In this document: positions 2,345 to 56,575 of the stretch, one piece after another | How positions within the stretch are numbered: position 1 is the first letter of the stretch | Layout of the letters: the number at the start of each line of letters is the position of its first letter | Virus record (IMG/VR): IMGVR_UViG_3300032080_000129 | Coordinates: 1 to 57,801 of that record | DNA from: a virus | Lineage: Duplodnaviria; Caudoviricetes | DNA length: 57,801 nt | Reading direction: 5' to 3' (one strand) | Position numbers and translations under genes: made by a program | The notes under the pieces: generated by a model | The model's database searches: none | What the model saw: the letters and a program-made list of their open reading frames with translations, nothing else | Told to the model about the DNA's origin: nothing

Positions 2345-2628
2345 CCCTGCTCCCCCTTTGAGTCACCGCTCGACTCCAGTGCTTCTTTACCTAGCTGGGT
2401 GAGGCGGTGGACTTCGCAGGGGCCGAAGTAGCCCTCTGCTTTGCGGGCGGACAGATGCCCCGAGGCAACCAGCCGCTCGATTCGTAGCCGTGCGTTCTTG
2501 AGGTAGATGTCCTGCGCCAAAGCGAGGTGCCAGACCGTCGGTTCTTCCTGCATCTCGTCGCCGACGTAGACGCTTTCGAGGCTCGAAACGATCCGCAGCG
2601 TCTCTACCTGGCTCGGTCGAAGTGCCAT
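2341..2628 (-). CDS. Hypothetical protein, possible winged helix
   Basis: Coupled to neighbours; ends HRLTQLGKEAL like a wHTH wing. Confidence 0.6.
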   Translation of the reverse strand: MALRPSQVETLRIVSSLESVYVGDEMQEEPTVWHLALAQDIYLKNARLRIERLVASGHLSARKAEGYFGPCEVHRLTQLGKEALESSGDSKGEQG

Positions 2629-3050
2629 CAGTGGTCACCGCCTGACTTGCTGGGTAGAGAGTCGGCGAAGTCAGAGAGGCGCTGCGACAGGGACCGGGCG
2701 TCGTCTTCGCCATCGCCGAGGACGTAGGGCAGGCACCGCAGAACTAGGCCAATCTCCTTCTCGCTGAGGAGGTTTGGGGGGGTCGCAGGGCGAACGCCCG
2801 CCTCCCGCTGCTTGTCGATCGCGTCCATGCGCCACTCGTTGATCTTGTCCTCCTCAACGACGCCCGCTAGCTCGGGAGGCAGAGCGCGCTCAACGTCTTC
2901 GACCGCCTCCGCCAGCATTTCCATCGTCGGGGCGGCGTTCGGTTCCGCACTCAGCGCCTCGGAGAGGATCGGCAGGATGTAGCGGAGCTCGAAGGCCCGC
3001 TGCGCAGACATTCGAATCGTCACCTGCTGCATGGGATCGAACCCGCCCAT
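2628..3050 (-). CDS. Hypothetical phage protein
   Basis: TGATG overlaps on both sides. Confidence 0.7.
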   Translation of the reverse strand: MGGFDPMQQVTIRMSAQRAFELRYILPILSEALSAEPNAAPTMEMLAEAVEDVERALPPELAGVVEEDKINEWRMDAIDKQREAGVRPATPPNLLSEKEIGLVLRCLPYVLGDGEDDARSLSQRLSDFADSLPSKSGGDH

Positions 3051-4042
3051 CAGCCCTCACCGCTCTTGTCGTCTGAGGAGGGCTGGGTAAGGGGATTGCA
3101 GTTGGAGCAGGCGGCCCATTCGGAGCCTTCCCAGATGACGCCCTGCTCGCATTCCTCGCACTCCCGGTCGCGGGCCTCCAAGGTCTCGACGTGCCAGGGG
3201 TCGCTGCTGCCTCCATCGCGGGCGCAGATCCCTTCCGGCTTCGCGGGGTCGGTCGAGGCGCAGGTCGGACAGTGCCCCTCCTCTACCCCGCCTTCCTGTC
3301 CATCGGAGGGCTGCTGGCGGCCGTACTCGTTGACAGGGTGATCCGGGTGGTCCGTGCAGCCAGGGCAGCCGCTCGTGCTGAGGTTGCCGCCGTGGACGCA
3401 GCGGGTCGCCGGCAGTTTGCATTCGTCGCAGAGCCACCGGGTGTCATCGCAGGTCGAGCATCCGGGTTGATGGTTCCCATCCGAATCGGCGCTGACGGGA
3501 GGTGCCGAGGTGGAAATGGAGACCTCGGCATGGAGCTCGGAGCCTCCGTGCCTGTCCCCACAGGTGTCAGCGCCGACTCCGACGGGTCGCTGGGAGAAGT
3601 CGTAGAGTGCGTCCGAAAGCTCAACCGTCAGCAGGTTCCGGGAGAGCAGGAAGTTGTTCAGCCCCTCCCTTACCTGCTCCAGCGTGTACCTCGGCTCCTC
3701 CTCTACCTGCTGGGGAAAATGCGTGGAGCCCTGATTGAGCCGGGCGGTTTCGCCAGGCATTCCCGCTTTCGCGGCCTCCTCGGCAAGCTCCTCGCTCGCG
3801 TCCACCACCACGGCGGTGAGCCTGTCGACGTTGGCTGCTTCCTCTACCTGTGCGGTGAAGTAGCGACGGAGCATCGGGAGGGCGTCCTTGATTCCTTGGC
3901 GCCATCGCGCTTTCTCGTCGGGGCTGGCTTCCTCCCAGATGCCAGGGAAGCGGTCCTCCATCGCGCCCTCCATTGCCTTCTTCGCTGCTCCATCCAGGAT
4001 GTGGAAAGGGACCTCCTCGGTGATCTGCTGGGGGTCGGTCAT
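3050..4042 (-). CDS. Mosaic hypothetical protein with several CxxC modules
   Basis: 330 aa; multiple CxxC pairs separated by repeated QVEE / GGVEEG / TQP linkers. Confidence 0.7.
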   Translation of the reverse strand: MTDPQQITEEVPFHILDGAAKKAMEGAMEDRFPGIWEEASPDEKARWRQGIKDALPMLRRYFTAQVEEAANVDRLTAVVVDASEELAEEAAKAGMPGETARLNQGSTHFPQQVEEEPRYTLEQVREGLNNFLLSRNLLTVELSDALYDFSQRPVGVGADTCGDRHGGSELHAEVSISTSAPPVSADSDGNHQPGCSTCDDTRWLCDECKLPATRCVHGGNLSTSGCPGCTDHPDHPVNEYGRQQPSDGQEGGVEEGHCPTCASTDPAKPEGICARDGGSSDPWHVETLEARDRECEECEQGVIWEGSEWAACSNCNPLTQPSSDDKSGEG

Positions 4043-20282: not shown

Positions 20283-20527
20283 GAAGCCACCCCCGCCAGC
20301 TCAGCCTCATAGGCAACGAAGGTCAGACACCGTTCCCAGTCGTGGTATTCCACCTTGCCTTCGTGGAGTTCTTCGACGATCTGGGAGAGGGTCATCGACG
20401 CCGGCACGTTGGCCTGCGACTCGAAGATCTGGGCGGCCTCCTCGACCGTCTCGCACTCCCACTTCTGGTCTTCCCTGCCGTTGAGCTGGGGACCGCCGTC
20501 GTAGATGGCCTCCACTACATAGGTCAT
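20279..20527 (-). CDS. Hypothetical protein
   Basis: ATGA overlaps. Confidence 0.65.
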   Translation of the reverse strand: MTYVVEAIYDGGPQLNGREDQKWECETVEEAAQIFESQANVPASMTLSQIVEELHEGKVEYHDWERCLTFVAYEAELAGVAS

Positions 20528-21255
20528 GCGGCCACCCTCTTTCGGCCGCGTCTCCGGGCAGGGAAGTGATGGCCCGCTTGGCGCAAGCGCTTAATCCGCG
20601 AGTAGACCGAGCTGATGGAGGCGTAGCCGGTGAACTCGGCGATCTGCTCAAGGGTCAGCCCTTCGCTCCACAGTTCTTCCAGGTACTGCGGTGATGCGAT
20701 CGGCGCGGCCGCCCCTTGCGGATCAACAGGGTTCGGCGGAACCTCAAGACCGAGTCTTTCGGCCCGGTCGAACATGCCGTTGACTGAGGCCGCGCTGGTG
20801 CCAAGGCGGCTGGCGATCTGATGGTTAGTCAGACCCTCTGAGCGCCAAGCGATGATCTGTTGGCGGCGCTCTTCCCGAACATCGGCGTCGCCACCGAGCC
20901 GCCGTAGGGGCAGGTTGGTCTCGCCGCGTTTTCGCCACGCGTGAACCAGGCTGGTGACCGAGTGCGAGGAAAGCCCTTCACCAATCTCCTCCGCGATCAA
21001 CCTGGCCGGCAGGCCTTCCCGCCACTTTTCCTTTATCTGACGGTTGCGCTCTCCGTATTTCGCCTCGTGCTTGCAGTCGCCGCACAGGTCATCGGGGGTC
21101 GCCGTACCGTCGTAGACGTCGGCGCTGCACTCCCGGCAGATCGCGGTGTACTGAGTTCGACGGCGGCAGCGCTGGCTGCACCAGATCCTCTTGCCGCGGG
21201 TGCCCGTGAGGTCCACGTCGCAATCGCGGCCTCGGCAGACCCGACGCTCCCCCAT
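20524..21255 (-). CDS. Zn-finger plus tandem HTH regulator
   Basis: C..C/WCS..C and CREC..CGDC followed by three W.EGL..I(A)E HTH repeats. Confidence 0.75.
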   Translation of the reverse strand: MGERRVCRGRDCDVDLTGTRGKRIWCSQRCRRRTQYTAICRECSADVYDGTATPDDLCGDCKHEAKYGERNRQIKEKWREGLPARLIAEEIGEGLSSHSVTSLVHAWRKRGETNLPLRRLGGDADVREERRQQIIAWRSEGLTNHQIASRLGTSAASVNGMFDRAERLGLEVPPNPVDPQGAAAPIASPQYLEELWSEGLTLEQIAEFTGYASISSVYSRIKRLRQAGHHFPARRRGRKRVAA

Positions 21256-21258
21256 GAC

Positions 21259-21495
21259 CTAAGCCACCTCCCTAGAAGAAGCTCCGGTGGGGATGCGATC
21301 CCAACCCATGAGCCACGAGGGCTCGACTCCGAGGAACTCGGCAACTAGTGGAGCGAGGTCGGCGGGGATCGTCGCCCCGTTGGCCCACTTCCGGACCGTG
21401 TCTTCAGTCCGCTCGATGGCGGAGGCGACTTCGCTGCGGGACCTGCCCGCCGACACCATTGCCTCCGCCAGCCGGTTCTTCGGGGGATTGACCAT
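21259..21495 (-). CDS. Cro-like XRE HTH
   Basis: NRLAEAM..GRSRSEVA...TVRKWANG..P...LGV.PSWLMGW; heads the early operon; TACGGT 6 nt upstream suggests a leaderless transcript. Confidence 0.85.
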   Translation of the reverse strand: MVNPPKNRLAEAMVSAGRSRSEVASAIERTEDTVRKWANGATIPADLAPLVAEFLGVEPSWLMGWDRIPTGASSREVA

Positions 21496-21512
21496 GGACC
21501 CACCGTAGCAGG

Positions 21513-21545
21513 TTCCAGAATCTCATTCCAGACTTCTTTTCTGGA
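21513..21545. promoter_or_regulatory. Candidate cI/cro operator
   Basis: TCCAGA-N7-TCTGGA (21527-21545) plus an extra TTCCAGA half-site at 21513, between the divergent HTH genes. Confidence 0.55.
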
Positions 21546-21585
21546 TCTATTCTCTTATGTGCGGATTTGGTTTACCGTTGCGGCG

Positions 21586-21828
21586 GTGGCGACCGGATTG
21601 ATAGAAGCGCTCGCAGCGGCAGCGAAGCGGGCGAGGGAAGATGCCGGCGTCAGCCGCAGCGAGGTCGCGGCCCGTGTTGGAAAGACTGAAGACACGATCC
21701 GAAAGTTCGAGGGCGCGCAGACCTTCACTGCCTTGAACGACATCATCGATGCCTATGAGGAGACGACCGACTCGTCCCTACTGGACCTGCTCTCCGAGGC
21801 TGAAGCCACCCTCAAGAGAAAAGGCTGA
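21586..21828 (+). CDS. Immunity repressor-like XRE HTH (80 aa, no peptidase domain)
   Basis: KRAREDAGVSRSEVAARVGKTEDTIRKFE; divergent from cro; TACCGT 7 nt before GTG. Confidence 0.8.
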   Translation: MATGLIEALAAAAKRAREDAGVSRSEVAARVGKTEDTIRKFEGAQTFTALNDIIDAYEETTDSSLLDLLSEAEATLKRKG

Positions 21829-22097: not shown

Positions 22098-22703
22098 TCA
22101 ACGTTTGTCCGGCGCCGGCACCTTGAAGAGGCCGAAGCCCGAAGAAATGTGGACCGCGCCGCGGCCTTCGGCACTTCGGCGTTCGGCTGACCGCTGCTCG
22201 ATTTGGTCCATCCCTTCCCGGGCCTGTTCGTAGAGTTCCAGGGCTTCATCTAAGCCCCGTTCATCGACGACCCGCCGAGTCCGCGACATGTGGAACTTGT
22301 CATCCTTACCTAGCGTTCCCTGCTTCCACGCCAGCACGTAGTCATCGAGCTGCACCTGCATGAACTCGCCTAGAAGGTGCTCGGCGAGAACCGGGTCGTC
22401 GGCGACGAGCTGATCCCACTCATCCGTTTCGATCAGCGACCGCTCAGTTGCTTTGTAGAACTTCTCGGAGGGCTTCCCGGCGTTTCGGCGCTCCTCGACC
22501 ATTTCGGCGCACCCGAGCTTCACCAGCTCTTTCGTGTGGTAGTTGACGTTGACCAGATCCTTCCGACCGAGCTTGAGGTGCCGCGTCATCTCGGCCGGAC
22601 TGGCGGTGCGCTCGGTCAGAATTTTGAAGATGGCGGCACGCAGAGGATGCTCCATCGCCTTCAGGCGATTCTGGCTTGCCTTGCGCTCGGTTCTGGTCGC
22701 CAC
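22098..22703 (-). CDS. ArsR-like winged-HTH regulator with C-terminal domain (copy 1)
   Basis: KAMEHPLRAAI..ASPAEM..NYH..L..GC; C-terminal GTL..D.FHMSRT..VDERG; start at GTG after GAGGGG (track start 22748). Confidence 0.85.
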   Translation of the reverse strand: MATRTERKASQNRLKAMEHPLRAAIFKILTERTASPAEMTRHLKLGRKDLVNVNYHTKELVKLGCAEMVEERRNAGKPSEKFYKATERSLIETDEWDQLVADDPVLAEHLLGEFMQVQLDDYVLAWKQGTLGKDDKFHMSRTRRVVDERGLDEALELYEQAREGMDQIEQRSAERRSAEGRGAVHISSGFGLFKVPAPDKR

Positions 22704-22748
22704 GGTCGCCCCCTCAGTGCTCCGATTGGCTTGAAGGTACTTGTTCAT

Positions 22749-22790
22749 AGCGCAAGATGTCCACTAAGCGCATGAACGTCCTCTAGCGCA
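22749..22790. promoter_or_regulatory. Three AGCGCA repeats at an exact 18-bp period
   Basis: Copies at 22749, 22767, 22785; spacers share GTCC[A/T]CT. Confidence 0.55.
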
Positions 22791-22839
22791 GTCATCGTTT
22801 CTTCCGCCTTCCGAGATCGCGAAAGGGGGTGAGGACCAG

Positions 22840-22899
22840 ATGACCATGGCGAAAACCGACGAGGTAATCCCGGCCGTAAAAATCGGCAAGACTGGCTGA
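22840..22899 (+). CDS. 19-aa peptide MTMAKTDEVIPAVKIGKTG
   Basis: AAGGGGGTGA RBS 7 nt upstream; homologous peptide at 55854; followed by hairpins. Confidence 0.72.
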   Translation: MTMAKTDEVIPAVKIGKTG

Positions 22900-22903
22900 G
22901 CTG

Positions 22904-23014
22904 CTGTCCGCCATCGGCGGATAGGTTTCGCGCGGCGCTGACATGGAGGTCTGTTCTCCTGTTGGTGCAAGGCCGGGTGCTCGCTGTTTGCCGCAGCGAC
23001 CCCGGCCGCTTTTC
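22904..23014 (+). terminator. Hairpins downstream of the peptide gene
   Basis: CTGTCCGCC-ATC-GGCGGATAG and GGCCGGG..TCGCTG/CAGCGA..CCCGGCC-GCTTTTC. Confidence 0.5.
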
Positions 23015-23240
23015 AAGTTCCGGTCGCGACTATAGCGCCTGAGTACCGGAGCGGTTCCTGAACAACAGCAAGTAGGGATAGCTGCTTTGGGGTTCGACGG
23101 TGGAGCTCCGTCGTCAGCCGATGGCATGAGCGACTCGATGGCCGAGTGGGAACATCAACCCTGCGGAACGCTCAATGTCGGCAACGGCCAGGCTCCAGGG
23201 GTCAGCAGGGGCGACTTCAGTTGTAGCGGCTACAGGCTCA

Positions 23241-47653: not shown

Positions 47654-47889
47654 TCGGATACGACGAGCTCTCCGCACTTGCGGGTGCCTCCTTGGGCATA
47701 GCGGCCACCCCGCCCTTGCGGGGAGCCTGTATCGAAGAGGTGCGGGCAGGCAGCGGGTGCGCGCCGCGCCTGCTGGGTGAGCAGGGGCTCCCATCAGCCT
47801 GCGCTCCCATCAGCCTGCCCTGTGGAGTGGGGCATCTGTCATCGCCCGGGAGATGCTGGTCTTCCCCTCCGGCGCCTCTACAGCGCCAG

Positions 47890-47977
47890 CGGAGCGACAG
47901 GGACTCGAACCCCGAAGGCGACTGACGCCGCCCTACGCGCTTAGCGGGCGCGCTCCTCGTCCTGCCGGACTCGCTCC
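47890..47977 (-). tRNA. tRNA-Ser(GCT), atypical
   Basis: Acceptor GGAGCGA/TCGCTCC, G73, T arm CGGGG-TTCGAGT-CCCTG, 8-bp variable arm, anticodon loop CCGCTAA; no encoded CCA. Confidence 0.75.
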
Positions 47978-51608: not shown

Positions 51609-53189
51609 TCAGCGCCAGGGGTGGTTCTTGGTTCCGGATGCGGGGCCGGGGGCGTTGGCGAGCCAGGTCATCGCTTGGCTCATCGCGTCAACCTGGTCGT
51701 CGTGAGCGCCGTTGTCGAAGATCGCGTGCTCGGAGATGAACTCGCCAACGCTGGTCTGCTCGTAGCCCAGGGGGGCCGGGATGAACTCGCCTTCGGGTAG
51801 GTAGACGTTTCCGGCCTCCACGATCGGTTCAGCGGCCGAGGCTCGCACCGTCTTGCCTCCTTCGGGCGGGACAGGCAGCATGCCGGGAATCTCGGCCTTC
51901 AAGGTGTTGATCACCGCCGGCCCGTTGGCCTTGTCCTCTACGAGCTTGGCCGAGGCGGGTTTCCACTGCTGGAGTGCCCTGACAGCCGCCAGGGACTCGG
52001 TGAAGCTCAGCCGTTTACGGATCTGGCCGAGGAGGAAGCGGTTGGCGCCATGGGCTCCCCAGACCTGACCAACGACGTAGCTAGACGCCTCGGTCTGGCT
52101 GTCTGAGAACCGCATGTCCCACGAGTGGATCACGCGGTCGAAGGGTGGAAGCGTTTCCCAGCGCTTCCACCAGTAGCGCTTGAACATCCCGCCCTCCAAG
52201 GGAGCGGGACGCTGCTGCATTTGGCCGGCGTAGCCGTAGCTGCCCAATCCCTTTGCCAGCTCGGCCAGCCGCTCGGGCGAAAGGCGTACCGGCTCCAGCA
52301 ACTCGTCCTCCTCGGTGCGAGGATCGCCGGGGAGTTCGCGGCCAGGCTTCACCACCACCTTGGGTTTGCCGTCCACCTCCTCAACCACCTCGCGATCGGG
52401 CAGCCGTACATGGTCGGGGTAGGTGAACGGATGGCCAGGCTCGTACTCGGCGGGAAGGCAGAGGTGGTGCCAACCGCCCTGGGCGAGCAGGTGGCCGGTC
52501 AGATCCTCCTCGTGTAGGCGCTGCATTACGATCACGCCTGCCGCCTCGGCGTTGTTGAAGCGGGTGGTCATCGTCTCGTCCCACCATTTGTTCGCGGCTA
52601 GGCGCTCAGCGTCGGAGCGGGCCTGCTTCGCGTTCAGCGGGTCGTCGATGACGATGCGATCGCCGCCCTCACCGGTCGCGATCCCTCCCACCGAGGTGGC
52701 AAGCCGCATCCCGGTCAGCGTCGTCTCGTACTTCTCCTTGGCGTTCTGGTCGCCGGTCAGCTCCCAGGGGTCCTCAGAGAGCAGGGAGAGCAGCCCCTGG
52801 TAGCCGACGCGCTCAAAAAGCGTGCCCTCTTCCCTTGCGCCTTGTGACTGAATCAGGCGCCGGCAGCGAACGGAGTCACGAAGGCTGAGGCTCTGCGCGT
52901 AGGTGGCGAAAAGCCAGCGCAGGTGCCCGGCGTCGAGCCATTCCCAGCAGGGCCAGAACACCGCGGTGGTCAGGCTCTTCATCGTCCTCGGAGGAACGTT
53001 GACGATCAGCCGACGCAGTTCCCCGCGCCCTACTGCTTCAAGGTGCTCGGCCAGCACGTCGATGTGCCAGCCGTGGATGAAGGGCGTGGCGGGCTCGACT
53101 ACCGGCCAAGCCTCACGGATGAAGGTCGAGAGGCGGCGCCGGCAGCGCTCGGCGGTTAGTTCATCGCGAGACGGAAGCCGGGTGAGCAC
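51609..53189 (-). CDS. terL: Terminase large subunit
   Basis: PPRTMKS Walker A, IVIDDP Walker B, QRLH, HDDQVDA nuclease motif. Confidence 0.95.
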   Translation of the reverse strand: MLTRLPSRDELTAERCRRRLSTFIREAWPVVEPATPFIHGWHIDVLAEHLEAVGRGELRRLIVNVPPRTMKSLTTAVFWPCWEWLDAGHLRWLFATYAQSLSLRDSVRCRRLIQSQGAREEGTLFERVGYQGLLSLLSEDPWELTGDQNAKEKYETTLTGMRLATSVGGIATGEGGDRIVIDDPLNAKQARSDAERLAANKWWDETMTTRFNNAEAAGVIVMQRLHEEDLTGHLLAQGGWHHLCLPAEYEPGHPFTYPDHVRLPDREVVEEVDGKPKVVVKPGRELPGDPRTEEDELLEPVRLSPERLAELAKGLGSYGYAGQMQQRPAPLEGGMFKRYWWKRWETLPPFDRVIHSWDMRFSDSQTEASSYVVGQVWGAHGANRFLLGQIRKRLSFTESLAAVRALQQWKPASAKLVEDKANGPAVINTLKAEIPGMLPVPPEGGKTVRASAAEPIVEAGNVYLPEGEFIPAPLGYEQTSVGEFISEHAIFDNGAHDDQVDAMSQAMTWLANAPGPASGTKNHPWR

Positions 53190-53195
53190 ACGCGC

Positions 53196-53765
53196 TCAGG
53201 CCTCCTCAAGCTTCGCTGCGATCCGCTCCAGCGCATCCAGCTCGTTGTCGTCCAGCTTTTCGAGGTCAACCTTGACCCGCTTCTCGATCTTGCCCGAGTG
53301 GTTGACATCGACTCGATCGCGGTACTTCTCCGGGCGCCGGGACTTCAGCATGAACTCCAGGAGGCGGTCGCTGTAGCTCTGCACATCCGTGACGTGTTTC
53401 CCCGCCGAGACCAACGGGGTCGTCACACCCTCAACCGCGCGACGATAGGCCTCACGCTCCATCGCCTCGGTCGATTCCTCCTCAGCGTCGGCCCAAGCCA
53501 GTGCGAAGTCCTCATTCCGCTGCCGCTCGGCGTAGACGGTATTGCGCGAGATCCCCATCAGTTCGCAGGCGGTCGAGACCATCCCGCACCAGCGGAAGGT
53601 GTCCAGCCACTGCTCGCGAGACCAGCGCTCATCACGCGGGCGCGTTGCAGTGTCCTGAGCGTCATCGTGTGGATGGCGCCCGCAGCGATCGCTTCCCCTC
53701 TTCGGGAACGCCGTGCAGGGCTTGCCGTCCTGGCGCTTTCCGGTGCACCGCTTCGGCTCGCTCAC
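53196..53765 (-). CDS. terS: Terminase small subunit
   Basis: HTH (VSTAC..GISRNTVY), EAYRRAVEG, YSDRLLEFMLK..RPEKYR. Confidence 0.85.
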   Translation of the reverse strand: MSEPKRCTGKRQDGKPCTAFPKRGSDRCGRHPHDDAQDTATRPRDERWSREQWLDTFRWCGMVSTACELMGISRNTVYAERQRNEDFALAWADAEEESTEAMEREAYRRAVEGVTTPLVSAGKHVTDVQSYSDRLLEFMLKSRRPEKYRDRVDVNHSGKIEKRVKVDLEKLDDNELDALERIAAKLEEA

Positions 53766-54580: not shown

Positions 54581-54657
54581 TGATGGCGGGGGCCAGATTT
54601 GAACTGGCGACCTCAGCGACATGAGCGCTGCGAGCTACCTGGCTGCTCTACCCCGCG
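54581..54657 (-). tRNA. tRNA-Met(CAT), initiator-like with altered anticodon arm
   Basis: CGCGGGG/CCCCGCC acceptor with C1xC72 mismatch, GAGC/GCTC D stem, CAGCG-CTCATGT-CGCTG, GCCAG-TTCAAAT-CTGGC, ends A-TCA. Confidence 0.88.
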
Positions 54658-55021: not shown

Positions 55022-55681
55022 TTACCTGGGCATGGACGGCGACTCGAAGGCCAGTGCCCCAGACGTAGCCGTGAAGGTCGGCGTGCCGTCGTCCTCGCCT
55101 CGCTCATGCCTCCGGACGATGGAGGCGGCTTTGATCCCCTGCGCTCGCTCTAGCGTCTCGGCTTGCAGATCCCGCAGTTCTTTCCAGCCCTGCTCATCCA
55201 GCTCCAAAGGCACCCAGCTCAAGTGGCGGTCGGGGCGCTTGTCGAAGGTGCCTTGGTAGATGGCTCCCTCGGCTCGCGCTATCAGCATCTGCAAAGTCGA
55301 CCGCGAGATGCTTCGCCGCTGCTCCAGGCTCAGCGCCTTGAAGTCCTCGTCGGTATGAAGCGCCAGCATTTTGCTTCGGTAGACGTGCTCGCTGGCGCCG
55401 CGTCTCGGGATGGTCTGGGTCAAGACGATGCAGTCGGCTTTCGCAAGCTCCTTGAAGTGATACGCGATGTGCGAGAGCGCGTTTTTCTCGTCCCCTTCGA
55501 AGTCGAAGCCGGGCGGCAGTAGTCCGCGCCGGAGGAACTGGATCGGGCTGAGGTCGCCTTCGCAGAGAGCTTCCAGAATTCGGACGCGGATCGGGTGTTT
55601 CAGCGCTTGGCAGACCGACTGCTCATTGGGGGAGCGCCTGTCCGCTCGACTCTTTCCAGCCTTCTGTGACCCCTGGTTCAT
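55022..55681 (-). CDS. ArsR-like winged-HTH regulator with C-terminal domain (copy 2)
   Basis: ALKHPIRVRIL..LSP..AYH..L..C; GTFDKRPDRHLSW..LDEQGW; AGGAGG RBS before ATG 55681. Confidence 0.85.
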   Translation of the reverse strand: MNQGSQKAGKSRADRRSPNEQSVCQALKHPIRVRILEALCEGDLSPIQFLRRGLLPPGFDFEGDEKNALSHIAYHFKELAKADCIVLTQTIPRRGASEHVYRSKMLALHTDEDFKALSLEQRRSISRSTLQMLIARAEGAIYQGTFDKRPDRHLSWVPLELDEQGWKELRDLQAETLERAQGIKAASIVRRHERGEDDGTPTFTATSGALAFESPSMPR

Positions 55682-55773
55682 ACAGCCCCTCCTGAGCACT
55701 TCAATCGTTTAGATCGCGAGAACCTATCCGATTGTGCGGTTGAGTTAAACGCTATTTGCGGCCGGGGTCTTAG

Positions 55774-55813
55774 TTAGTAGAACCACTTCTATTAGTAGAG
55801 GTAGTTCTATTAA
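55774..55813. promoter_or_regulatory. Tandem 18-bp palindromic repeats
   Basis: TTAGTAGAACCACTTCTA|TTAGTAGAGGTAGTTCTA|TTAA. Confidence 0.65.
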
Positions 55814-55853
55814 CAGCCGGGTTCCCCAGACGACGGGAAGGGGGTGAACTCGG

Positions 55854-55913
55854 ATGAAGATCATCGGCAGCGTGCCGGTCCACCCGGCCGCGTCCATCAA
55901 CAAGGGGGGCTGA
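55854..55913 (+). CDS. 19-aa peptide MKIIGSVPVHPAASINKGG
   Basis: AAGGGGGTGA RBS 6 nt upstream; homologous to the 22840 peptide; followed by GC hairpins. Confidence 0.72.
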   Translation: MKIIGSVPVHPAASINKGG

Positions 55914-56038
55914 CCCTCCCCAGCCCTTTAGGTGGCCCCGGCGCTCGATTCGGGCCGGGGTCGCCATGTGAAGTCGAATCTGAGGCAGGGGGCTTGGCGA
56001 CCGCCCCTGAGGACGCGCCGCCTGCTCTCGTTGGCTTG

Positions 56039-56575
56039 CTAGGCGAGGGAGCGCTCGCGTGCCATCTCTACGCCCCATTCAATGTCTTCGAGTGAGGGCG
56101 GCTCTTGCGAGATGAACACCGAGTGATACGGGATCTCCTCGCCCTCTACGGTCAGTTCGTAACCGGGGAAGGCGTGGGAGAGATTGCGGAGGTCCGTCGC
56201 GTCTTCATCCCAATGCTTCTGGATGACTTCATCGACAAGGGCCAGTTGATCGCTGGTCATCCAGTCGATCTGGGCCTTGCGCTTGGCGACGATCCTCCTC
56301 TGTCTGTACATGTACCTGCCGACCTCTTGAATCTCGATTGATCCCGAGTCCTTGAGGTCGCGCTCAGCGAGCAACTGCTCATCGGCGAGCGGCCCGTGAG
56401 GCTTCTTTCGGTAGCACGCGCCAGTGATTGACTCGCCGAACTCGGCATGGGCGCCGAAGTCGCTGAGGAACAGCAACTTGGCGAGCTTGACGCGCCCGAA
56501 ACGGGGATCGTCGCTCGACCTCTCAGCGAGGTAGAGGATCAACTCCCGCGTCTTCTGTATGGATTCTTTAGTCAT
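56039..56575 (-). CDS. Panacea (DUF4065/SocA-like) domain protein
   Basis: LILYL, KLAKLLFLSDF, SITG..Y.K.PHGP, L.NLSH. Confidence 0.85.
   Translation of the reverse strand: MTKESIQKTRELILYLAERSSDDPRFGRVKLAKLLFLSDFGAHAEFGESITGACYRKKPHGPLADEQLLAERDLKDSGSIEIQEVGRYMYRQRRIVAKRKAQIDWMTSDQLALVDEVIQKHWDEDATDLRNLSHAFPGYELTVEGEEIPYHSVFISQEPPSLEDIEWGVEMARERSLA

Follow-up and report, generated by a model that had tools for sequence, protein, structure and literature searches.

What does a 19-codon open reading frame (ORF) do that lies divergent from a regulator gene, next to the immunity genes of a prophage? The question is raised by the provirus record IMGVR_UViG_3300032080_000129 (Caudoviricetes), the 57.8-kb stretch (57,801 nucleotides, 64.5% G+C) that is called the window throughout this article. 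The window contains two such arrangements, termed module 1 and module 2, each consisting of a gene for a winged helix–turn–helix (wHTH) protein and a divergent 19-codon ORF. A preliminary description made from the sequence had proposed an undescribed regulator/short-peptide unit. The unit proves to be real, conserved, and co-inherited, and the accessible literature contains no account of it as a unit. Each module is read here as a regulator plus an orphan precursor of a ribosomally made peptide that is modified after translation (RiPP) of the ThiF-like adenylyltransferase (TLAT) type, which would be matured in trans; this reading is given a probability of roughly 0.6.

Two modules and a conserved peptide family

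Both modules are present in the sequence as first described, with a ribosome-binding site (RBS) in front of each short ORF. In module 1, the wHTH1 gene (22098–22748, minus strand) encodes an ArsR-like winged-helix regulator of 216 residues with a helical C-terminal domain. The peptide 1 gene (22840–22899, plus strand) begins 91 nt from the start of wHTH1, comprises 19 codons plus stop, and ends in K-T-G. Module 2 consists of the paralogous wHTH2 gene (55022–55681, minus strand; 219 residues, or 225 with the upstream GTG at 55699) and of the peptide 2 gene (55854–55913, plus strand), likewise of 19 codons plus stop and ending in K-G-G. The peptide genes are called from their ORFs, their homologues, and a profile; wHTH1 rests on its ORF, homologues, an AlphaFold2 (AF2) model, and Foldseek, and wHTH2 on its ORF and a family hidden Markov model (E 2e-58). 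Aligned over 191 positions, the regulators are 26% identical (E 1e-9), which bears out the paralogy noted earlier, and the pattern V-x-P-A-x-x-I-x-K-x-G is common to the C-terminal parts of both peptides when they are read side by side. The common 10-nt RBS is likewise confirmed by exact motif matching. The Shine–Dalgarno region AAGGGGGTGA occurs only twice in the window (22823–22832 and 55838–55847, plus strand), each time just 5′ of a peptide start, and up to one mismatch yields 7 matches versus 3.37 expected. The cassette contains neither a signal sequence, in agreement with the initial observation, nor a transporter or export gene, and in neither module does any gene come after the peptide on the same strand.

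Homologues show whether such short ORFs are kept. wHTH1 has 96 homologues in a large protein collection, and the named ones belong to Solirubrobacterales. A search for related loci with the wHTH1 alignment returned three genome, seven metagenome, and no viral loci, all 10 of which were fetched; in all eight that have upstream DNA, the check proposed in the preliminary description finds 19 codons for a similar peptide, divergent from the regulator and preceded by GGAGGTGA or GGGGGTGA as RBS. A strict filter, demanding a strong RBS and 17 to 20 codons, was then applied upstream of 59 wHTH genes for which 350 nt or more of preceding sequence was available. It was positive for 22 of the 59 upstream windows versus about 1.8 expected; the expectation comes from the remainder of these loci, where the filter yields 22 ORFs in 454,776 nt (0.03 per window of 630 nt). 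Across the whole family, a family peptide is found in the divergent unit of about 31 of the 59 wHTH genes, and in the clade holding module 1 it accompanies every regulator (10/10).

When the intergenic regions are aligned, conservation is highest in the stretch that runs from RBS to stop, which contains many third-position changes. Start, RBS spacing, a length of 18 to 21 codons, and stop are retained without frameshift despite strong nucleotide divergence. The expected codon-level conservation is borne out among close relatives, where the ratio of nonsynonymous to synonymous changes (pN/pS) for 11 sequences is 0.60 in frame versus 0.83 and 1.45 in the shifted frames; it does not extend to all 20 diverged sequences, which give 0.97. 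In these alignments, the stronger argument for coding is the conservation of frame, length, and residues, rather than pN/pS. Among 37 tabulated peptides, lysine occupies position −3 from the C terminus in all and proline position −9 in 32; peptide 1, which is absent from this table, has both residues as well. The last residue is glycine in 21, alanine in six, serine in six, threonine in three, and asparagine in one. The family can thus be described as peptides of 18 to 21 residues with a conserved N-terminal part, a proline at −9, an invariant lysine at −3, and a small last residue. Both 19-codon ORFs of the window are real and conserved, not chance ORFs. Such 18- to 21-codon genes seem to be overlooked by gene callers; exact look-ups of five family members of 20 to 21 residues in a collection of 15 billion proteins found none of them.

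The peptide block is followed, in the intergenic alignment of homologues, by a G+C-rich stem-loop with compensating changes, and 14 of 20 peptides have a stem-loop 3′ of the stop with z ≤ −2. Hairpins had been noted downstream of both window peptides. For peptide 2, this is confirmed by fold energy: a 12-pair G+C-rich stem-loop (55931–55965, plus strand; −29.3 kcal/mol, z −3.8) is a candidate terminator or transcript stabilizer. For peptide 1, the claim does not hold equally, the fold being no better than shuffles (−21.1 kcal/mol, z −0.9); a short stem-loop read from the sequence (22907–22921, plus strand) is a weak terminator candidate, and homologues of peptide 1 have stems of 10 to 13 pairs at the corresponding place. 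The roughly 340 nt that separate peptide 1 from the late-operon end (22900–23240) hold no convincing ORF and are not conserved across homologous loci. At L009 (22–81) and L010 (1916–1975), two of the related loci, which carry L-numbers here, the family is represented by a further peptide gene, which follows the first on the same strand after about 490 nt, with an 86-residue gene without Pfam match in between. Pfam gave nothing useful for the small genes adjoining the cassettes.

Regulators and enzymes of the family

The regulators had been called ArsR-like. By Pfam this is only partly sustained, as wHTH1 scores 18.8 bits on HTH_20, under the cut-off of 27, and wHTH2 has no Pfam match; precomputed PF12840 assignments on many wHTH1 homologues and the fold comparisons do uphold it. 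The AF2 model of wHTH1 (predicted local distance difference test, pLDDT, 81.8) combines an ArsR-type wHTH with helices at 108–142 and 163–194 and an extended conserved segment. In Foldseek it comes closest to 4g6q (E 2.8e-5), a Kribbella protein without assigned function; Phr, 1uly, 2cwe, and 2p4w are matched as well, and NolR, SmtB, CzrA, and HlyU reach a probability of 1.0. Atlas clusters near the wHTH hold proteins of about 200 residues with HTH_20 and HTH_5, which are common in Actinomycetota. That the regulator lacks tetratricopeptide repeats (TPR) was stated correctly: Pfam finds none, and the model consists of the wHTH and three long helices. In the model, the C-terminal domain resembles a long helical hairpin, like the dimerization parts of Phr/PH1932-type ArsR proteins. 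The predicted overall fold, a wHTH plus helical C-terminal domain, is that of Phr/PH1932-type and Kfla_6221-type ArsR proteins (about 200 residues); unlike the family described here, none of those has been described with a paired peptide gene.

Within the order, the wHTH family is patchy (34/151 genomes), and in a sample of the phylum it is rare (6/301). Two Solirubrobacterales metagenome-assembled genomes, G001 and G002, contain it in multiple copies, with 12 and 10 near-full-length paralogues, respectively. A tree of 59 regulators places module 1 in a fully supported clade of 10 members, all of which are orphan cassettes, and wHTH2 as sister to an orphan cassette of G001 (L027; support 99/96), with both peptides ending in K-G-G. 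Enzyme-linked and orphan regulators interleave on this tree. Judged from the tree and the peptide sequences, the cassette is inherited as a unit, which fits specific recognition and is equally the plain outcome of linkage. In several loci (L006, L008–L011), the wHTH gene is directly followed by a second paralogue, and L024 has a single frame of 504 residues that joins two copies.

The enzyme link came from a profile of the orphan peptides, which located additional members of 20 to 21 codons away from the regulator. These lie just after a gene for a class-I S-adenosylmethionine-dependent methyltransferase, often overlapping its stop, and just before a gene for a ThiF-family protein of 355 to 400 residues. 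In related Solirubrobacterales genomes, a family peptide of 18 to 21 codons is found 0 to 70 nt upstream of the TLAT gene in 15 of 16 TLAT loci, preceded by the methyltransferase in 12 of the 16, and the wHTH gene is divergent from the TLAT operon wherever the flank is available, save in L086, where it is convergent. The profile built from orphan peptides only gives some enzyme-adjacent peptides scores of 45.7, 38.3, 24.7, and 20.2, whereas the best match outside peptide ORFs scores 2.5. Window peptides and enzyme-adjacent peptides have length, RBS, Lys −3, and Pro −9 in common, and their regulators belong to one family. By these shared sequence features, the peptides of the window and those next to the enzyme are homologues.

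The enzyme matches Pfam ThiF with E about 1e-48. Its best solved relatives by phmmer are MccB (1e-34) and PaaA (4e-28, from residue 23, N terminus included). In Foldseek comparisons of an AF2 model (pLDDT 89.1), MccB and PaaA align over the full length (344–363 columns, template-modeling score 0.71–0.81), whereas for ThiF and MoeB the match is confined to 269 columns at the C-terminal end. Because the peptide-modifying enzymes align in full and ThiF and MoeB over the catalytic domain only, the enzyme is predicted to be a peptide-modifying TLAT fused to a RiPP recognition element (RRE), that is, an N-terminal peptide-binding domain followed by a ThiF adenylation domain. Of the 151 genomes of the order, 11 have the TLAT, and each of these belongs to the 34 that have the wHTH; furthermore, for 15 of 15 TLAT matches, a wHTH match is no more than 1.6 kb away. 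Against plasmids, tblastn with the TLAT gave partial ThiF-domain matches only. Directly after the TLAT gene of L064, a NUDIX/NADH-pyrophosphatase-type gene (2593–3471) is found, which may serve tailoring or self-protection.

Possible maturation in trans and its alternatives

The peptides are read as RiPP precursors because their family lies directly upstream of MccB/PaaA-like TLATs. That orphan members may be matured in trans is suggested by the two genomes with many cassettes. G001 contains 12 full-length wHTH paralogues and one MccB-like TLAT having its own peptide and wHTH. G002 contains 10 wHTH paralogues and one TLAT; no peptide or wHTH lies within 8 kb of this TLAT, and at least eight regulator-plus-peptide cassettes are found elsewhere in the genome. 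This is the pattern expected if dispersed precursors were matured in trans, and trans action is plausible. ProcA/ProcM is an example of a system with trans-acting precursors. The wHTH is best read as a cluster-type regulator.

A module would then work as a two-gene cassette, with an ArsR-type regulator divergent from a very short mRNA that comprises the RBS, 19 codons, and the stem-loop at which it would end. The wHTH would bind repeats in the common intergenic region and control the divergent promoters. Candidate operators are three direct AGCGCA repeats in module 1 (22749–22790; copies at 22749, 22767, and 22785 with 18-nt spacing, two of them obtained by a repeat search and the third read from the sequence), of which AGCGC blocks are kept in the intergenic regions of homologous loci, and in module 2 an A+T-rich, imperfect 19-nt inverted repeat (55773–55814; arms 55773–55791 and 55796–55814, 84% complementary) from a repeat search. 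A sigma-70 consensus scan found no promoter in the divergent intergenic region of module 1; two terminator-like sites lie within wHTH1, no more than in shuffles. If expressed from the lysogen, the precursor would meet a host TLAT encoded elsewhere, which would adenylate its C-terminal carboxylate. A nucleophile would capture the activated end, the side chain of the invariant Lys −3 being a guessed candidate, and the methyltransferase would tailor the product.

Several points weigh against this assignment. The 57.8-kb window contains no TLAT and no related methyltransferase. About 28 of the 59 wHTH genes lack a detectable family peptide; seven or eight of these have a methyltransferase followed by an ORF of 5 to 15 codons, and 20 have other neighbors. 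On the orphan profile, several of the peptides linked to an enzyme hardly differ from background (1.5, −5.0, −6.1), and their homology is indicated by position, length, and the Lys/Pro pattern only. The substitution-rate signal for coding is modest and, over the 20 diverged sequences, no different from that of the shifted frames. The module 1 hairpin is weak, with six pairs. Finally, a private paralogous regulator lies beside every orphan precursor, which simple trans-precursor systems do not require. Since each orphan precursor keeps its dedicated regulator, room is left for a role of the peptide as ligand.

According to such a ligand model, akin to the one first put forward, the peptide, unmodified or matured by a TLAT, would bind the paired wHTH and alter how it binds DNA. 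Every cassette would thereby sense its own peptide in a private circuit, and the copy on the prophage could serve to report that phage is present, or at what density. This autoinduction is compatible with the precursor reading and partly overlaps with it, and by itself it is considered rather unlikely. In its favor, regulator and peptide remain together even without enzymes (20 orphan cassettes), and they diverge jointly, sister regulators having similar peptide ends (K-G-G with K-G-G, K-Q-G with K-Q-G). G001 and G002, moreover, have one enzyme for many cassettes, yet every peptide retains its own regulator paralogue, and signaling roles are suggested for Firmicutes TLAT RiPPs in the available text of PMC12250964. 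Codivergence, however, is expected from plain linkage, and the most conserved regulator motifs are common to paralogues whose peptides differ. The predicted helical hairpin of the C-terminal domain, being like the dimerization domains of Phr/PH1932, offers no evident pocket, and the missing signal peptide and export gene also speak against the model. A bolder form of the ligand model, which is regarded as improbable, combines both ideas: a single host TLAT would mature many precursors, perhaps by a small ring from the invariant lysine to the activated C terminus, each product would be sensed by its own paired ArsR-type regulator, and the prophage copy would signal or sense lysogeny. If true, such circuits would be arbitrium-like with a RiPP signal and a non-TPR receptor; ArsR-type proteins are not known to sense peptides.

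Equally doubtful is the idea that the orphan peptides act unmodified as small proteins, or are decaying remnants of enzyme clusters kept by linkage to a useful regulator. The window indeed has no enzyme, and several clades consist of orphan cassettes only, so that enzyme loss could be old. Yet length, RBS, Lys −3, and Pro −9 are retained across regulators as distant as E 1e-30 to the family profile, which argues for selection on features shared with the enzyme-linked peptides, and both orphan-rich genomes retain exactly one TLAT. A noncoding or cis-regulatory RNA (leader or attenuator) with an incidental ORF, or mere chance ORFs, would be in keeping with the stem-loop 3′ of the ORF and the weak substitution-rate signal over diverged pairs but is very improbable given the lack of a same-strand gene 3′ in either window module, the gene architecture retained in frame amid nucleotide divergence, the conservation at the amino-acid level (Lys 37/37, Pro 32/37), an Rfam search matching the tRNA alone, and an enrichment over background of more than tenfold.

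Two further candidates were rejected. A leader-peptide or antibiotic-attenuator reading, suggested by the succession of short ORF and hairpin, is at odds with the absence of anything 3′ on that strand in the window and with homologues that precede a peptide-modifying enzyme. For a daptide reading, the methyltransferase reaches only 51 to 56 bits on the daptide methyltransferase model versus a cut-off of 175, and threonine is not the usual last residue of the peptides.

A separate observation concerns seven loci without a 20-codon peptide (L043–L045, L048, L050, L055, and L056). Herein, an ORF of 5 to 15 codons with a strong RBS lies 3′ of the methyltransferase gene. The products read M-S-I-I-Q-P, V-I-I-Q-P, or a triple I-I-R-P repeat, and genes for a PF14350 Beta_protein and an M42 peptidase follow. 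These ORFs may be a second, ultrashort type of precursor.

Prophage setting and known systems

Module 1 is situated after two small face-to-face HTH genes (21259–21828) and before the end of the late operon, which encodes a CHAP-like lysin, tail and head proteins, and the terminase. By this position between the immunity genes and the late-operon end, and by its autonomy, it is moron-like. The preliminary description had pointed to an adjacent repressor without autocleavage domain. The neighboring HTH proteins of 78 and 89 residues indeed consist of HTH domains alone; either of the two may be the repressor. The proposed tie of module 1 to the lysis–lysogeny decision is one of position only. Directly after the 78-residue HTH_3 gene, an early protein of 243 residues is encoded (20524–21255, minus strand), which has HTH_23 and GcrA-like matches and two repeated HTH regions.

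At the ends of the phage genes, an integrase gene is found at 1–1287, followed by early genes on the minus strand, and terminase genes at 51609–53765. Between the phage genes and module 2 lies a tRNA-Met gene (54584–54657, minus strand; tRNA call and Rfam), which, considering integrase, terminase, and tRNA together, probably marks the end of the prophage. No att repeat was found inside the 57.8-kb window. Module 2 is probably not phage-borne because it lies beyond this probable end. Convergent with peptide 2, a protein with a SocA/Panacea antitoxin domain (E 7.9e-10) is encoded at 56039–56575 (minus strand), for which no toxin partner was identified. The Rfam search of the window region matched the tRNA alone. 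Among the phage structural genes, ARAGORN calls an 89-nt tRNA-Ser (GCT) at 47889–47977 (minus strand), which is under the Rfam gathering score. Neither wHTH matches any PHROGs family, and tblastn of wHTH1 against 50,697 phage records gave zero matches.

Microcin C (MccA/MccB) is one of the closest known systems. There, too, the gene of a ThiF-like adenylyltransferase that has a peptide-binding domain at its N terminus is directly preceded by a very short peptide gene, MccB being the best solved relative of the enzyme described here, and a stem-loop comes after the precursor gene. Such a precursor-then-hairpin layout is that of the mccA–mccB operon. In contrast to these peptides, microcin C precursors end in asparagine, which is needed for the phosphoramidate; only one of 37 family peptides does so, and the other 36 end in G, A, S, or T after the invariant lysine, the window peptides in G. 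The peptides described here also measure 18 to 21 residues, as opposed to mostly seven, they are paired with an ArsR-like regulator, and the window lacks an enzyme. Judged by sequence, the cassettes are not a microcin C system, because the C-terminal asparagine is absent. A further likeness is methyltransferase-type tailoring, which occurs in some mcc clusters according to the available text of PMC12596934.

Known TLAT RiPPs normally have short precursors (MccA 7 residues, EnfA 21 residues; PMC12250964), and the products reported for the class in the accessible parts of the literature are microcin C, pantocin A, a thiolactone, a cyclic imide, and an indolylamide (PMC12250964, PMC12596934, PMC12150305). 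Enterofaecin (EnfA/EnfB), the GrcB thiolactone, the IndF indolylamide, and PaaA pantocin share with the family a short precursor with a leader motif and a C-terminal core; in these systems, the C-terminal carboxylate is first activated by the enzyme and a ring is then closed by a nucleophile of the peptide itself, as far as the available text describes it (PMC12250964, PMC12150305). Unlike the present family, those systems, as covered there, stem from Firmicutes or Enterobacteria and have the core motifs WWIVI, Glu-Cys, and Trp-Ile. The available portions of PMC12250964, PMC12596934, and PMC12150305 make no mention of an actinobacterial family, a lysine nucleophile, or a paired ArsR-type regulator, and the terms “lactam” and “actinobacteri” do not occur in the available text of PMC12596934. 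Dispersed regulator-plus-precursor cassettes are not described in the accessible parts of the literature searched; the network of 27,400 RRE–ThiF fusions behind PMC12150305 may include this enzyme group.

Rgg/SHP, ComR/XIP, and arbitrium (AimR/AimP) resemble the cassettes in having a short peptide gene that adjoins, and is often divergent from, the regulator gene, with paired variants, and arbitrium further resembles them in that one copy resides on a temperate phage beside the immunity region. In contrast to these systems, the cassettes lack a TPR receptor, a signal sequence, and genes for export or processing, and their peptide family is tied to a modifying enzyme. The cassettes are not an RRNPP or arbitrium system, because a TPR receptor is absent.

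By analogy, the system appears to work like a TLAT RiPP pathway, a kind of RiPP system that is already known. What it adds is a family of very short genes linked to an uncharacterized actinobacterial branch of ThiF-like RiPP enzymes. The invariant Lys −3 and the small C-terminal residue suggest a chemistry that is not listed in the available parts of two 2025 reviews (PMC12250964, PMC12596934). The dispersal of the cassettes is unusual for RiPPs, with up to a dozen per genome versus a single enzyme and with one of them carried as a moron by a prophage. The cassettes hence present a testable case of whether precursor genes can spread alone and whether sensing of a peptide product is within the reach of an ArsR-type protein.

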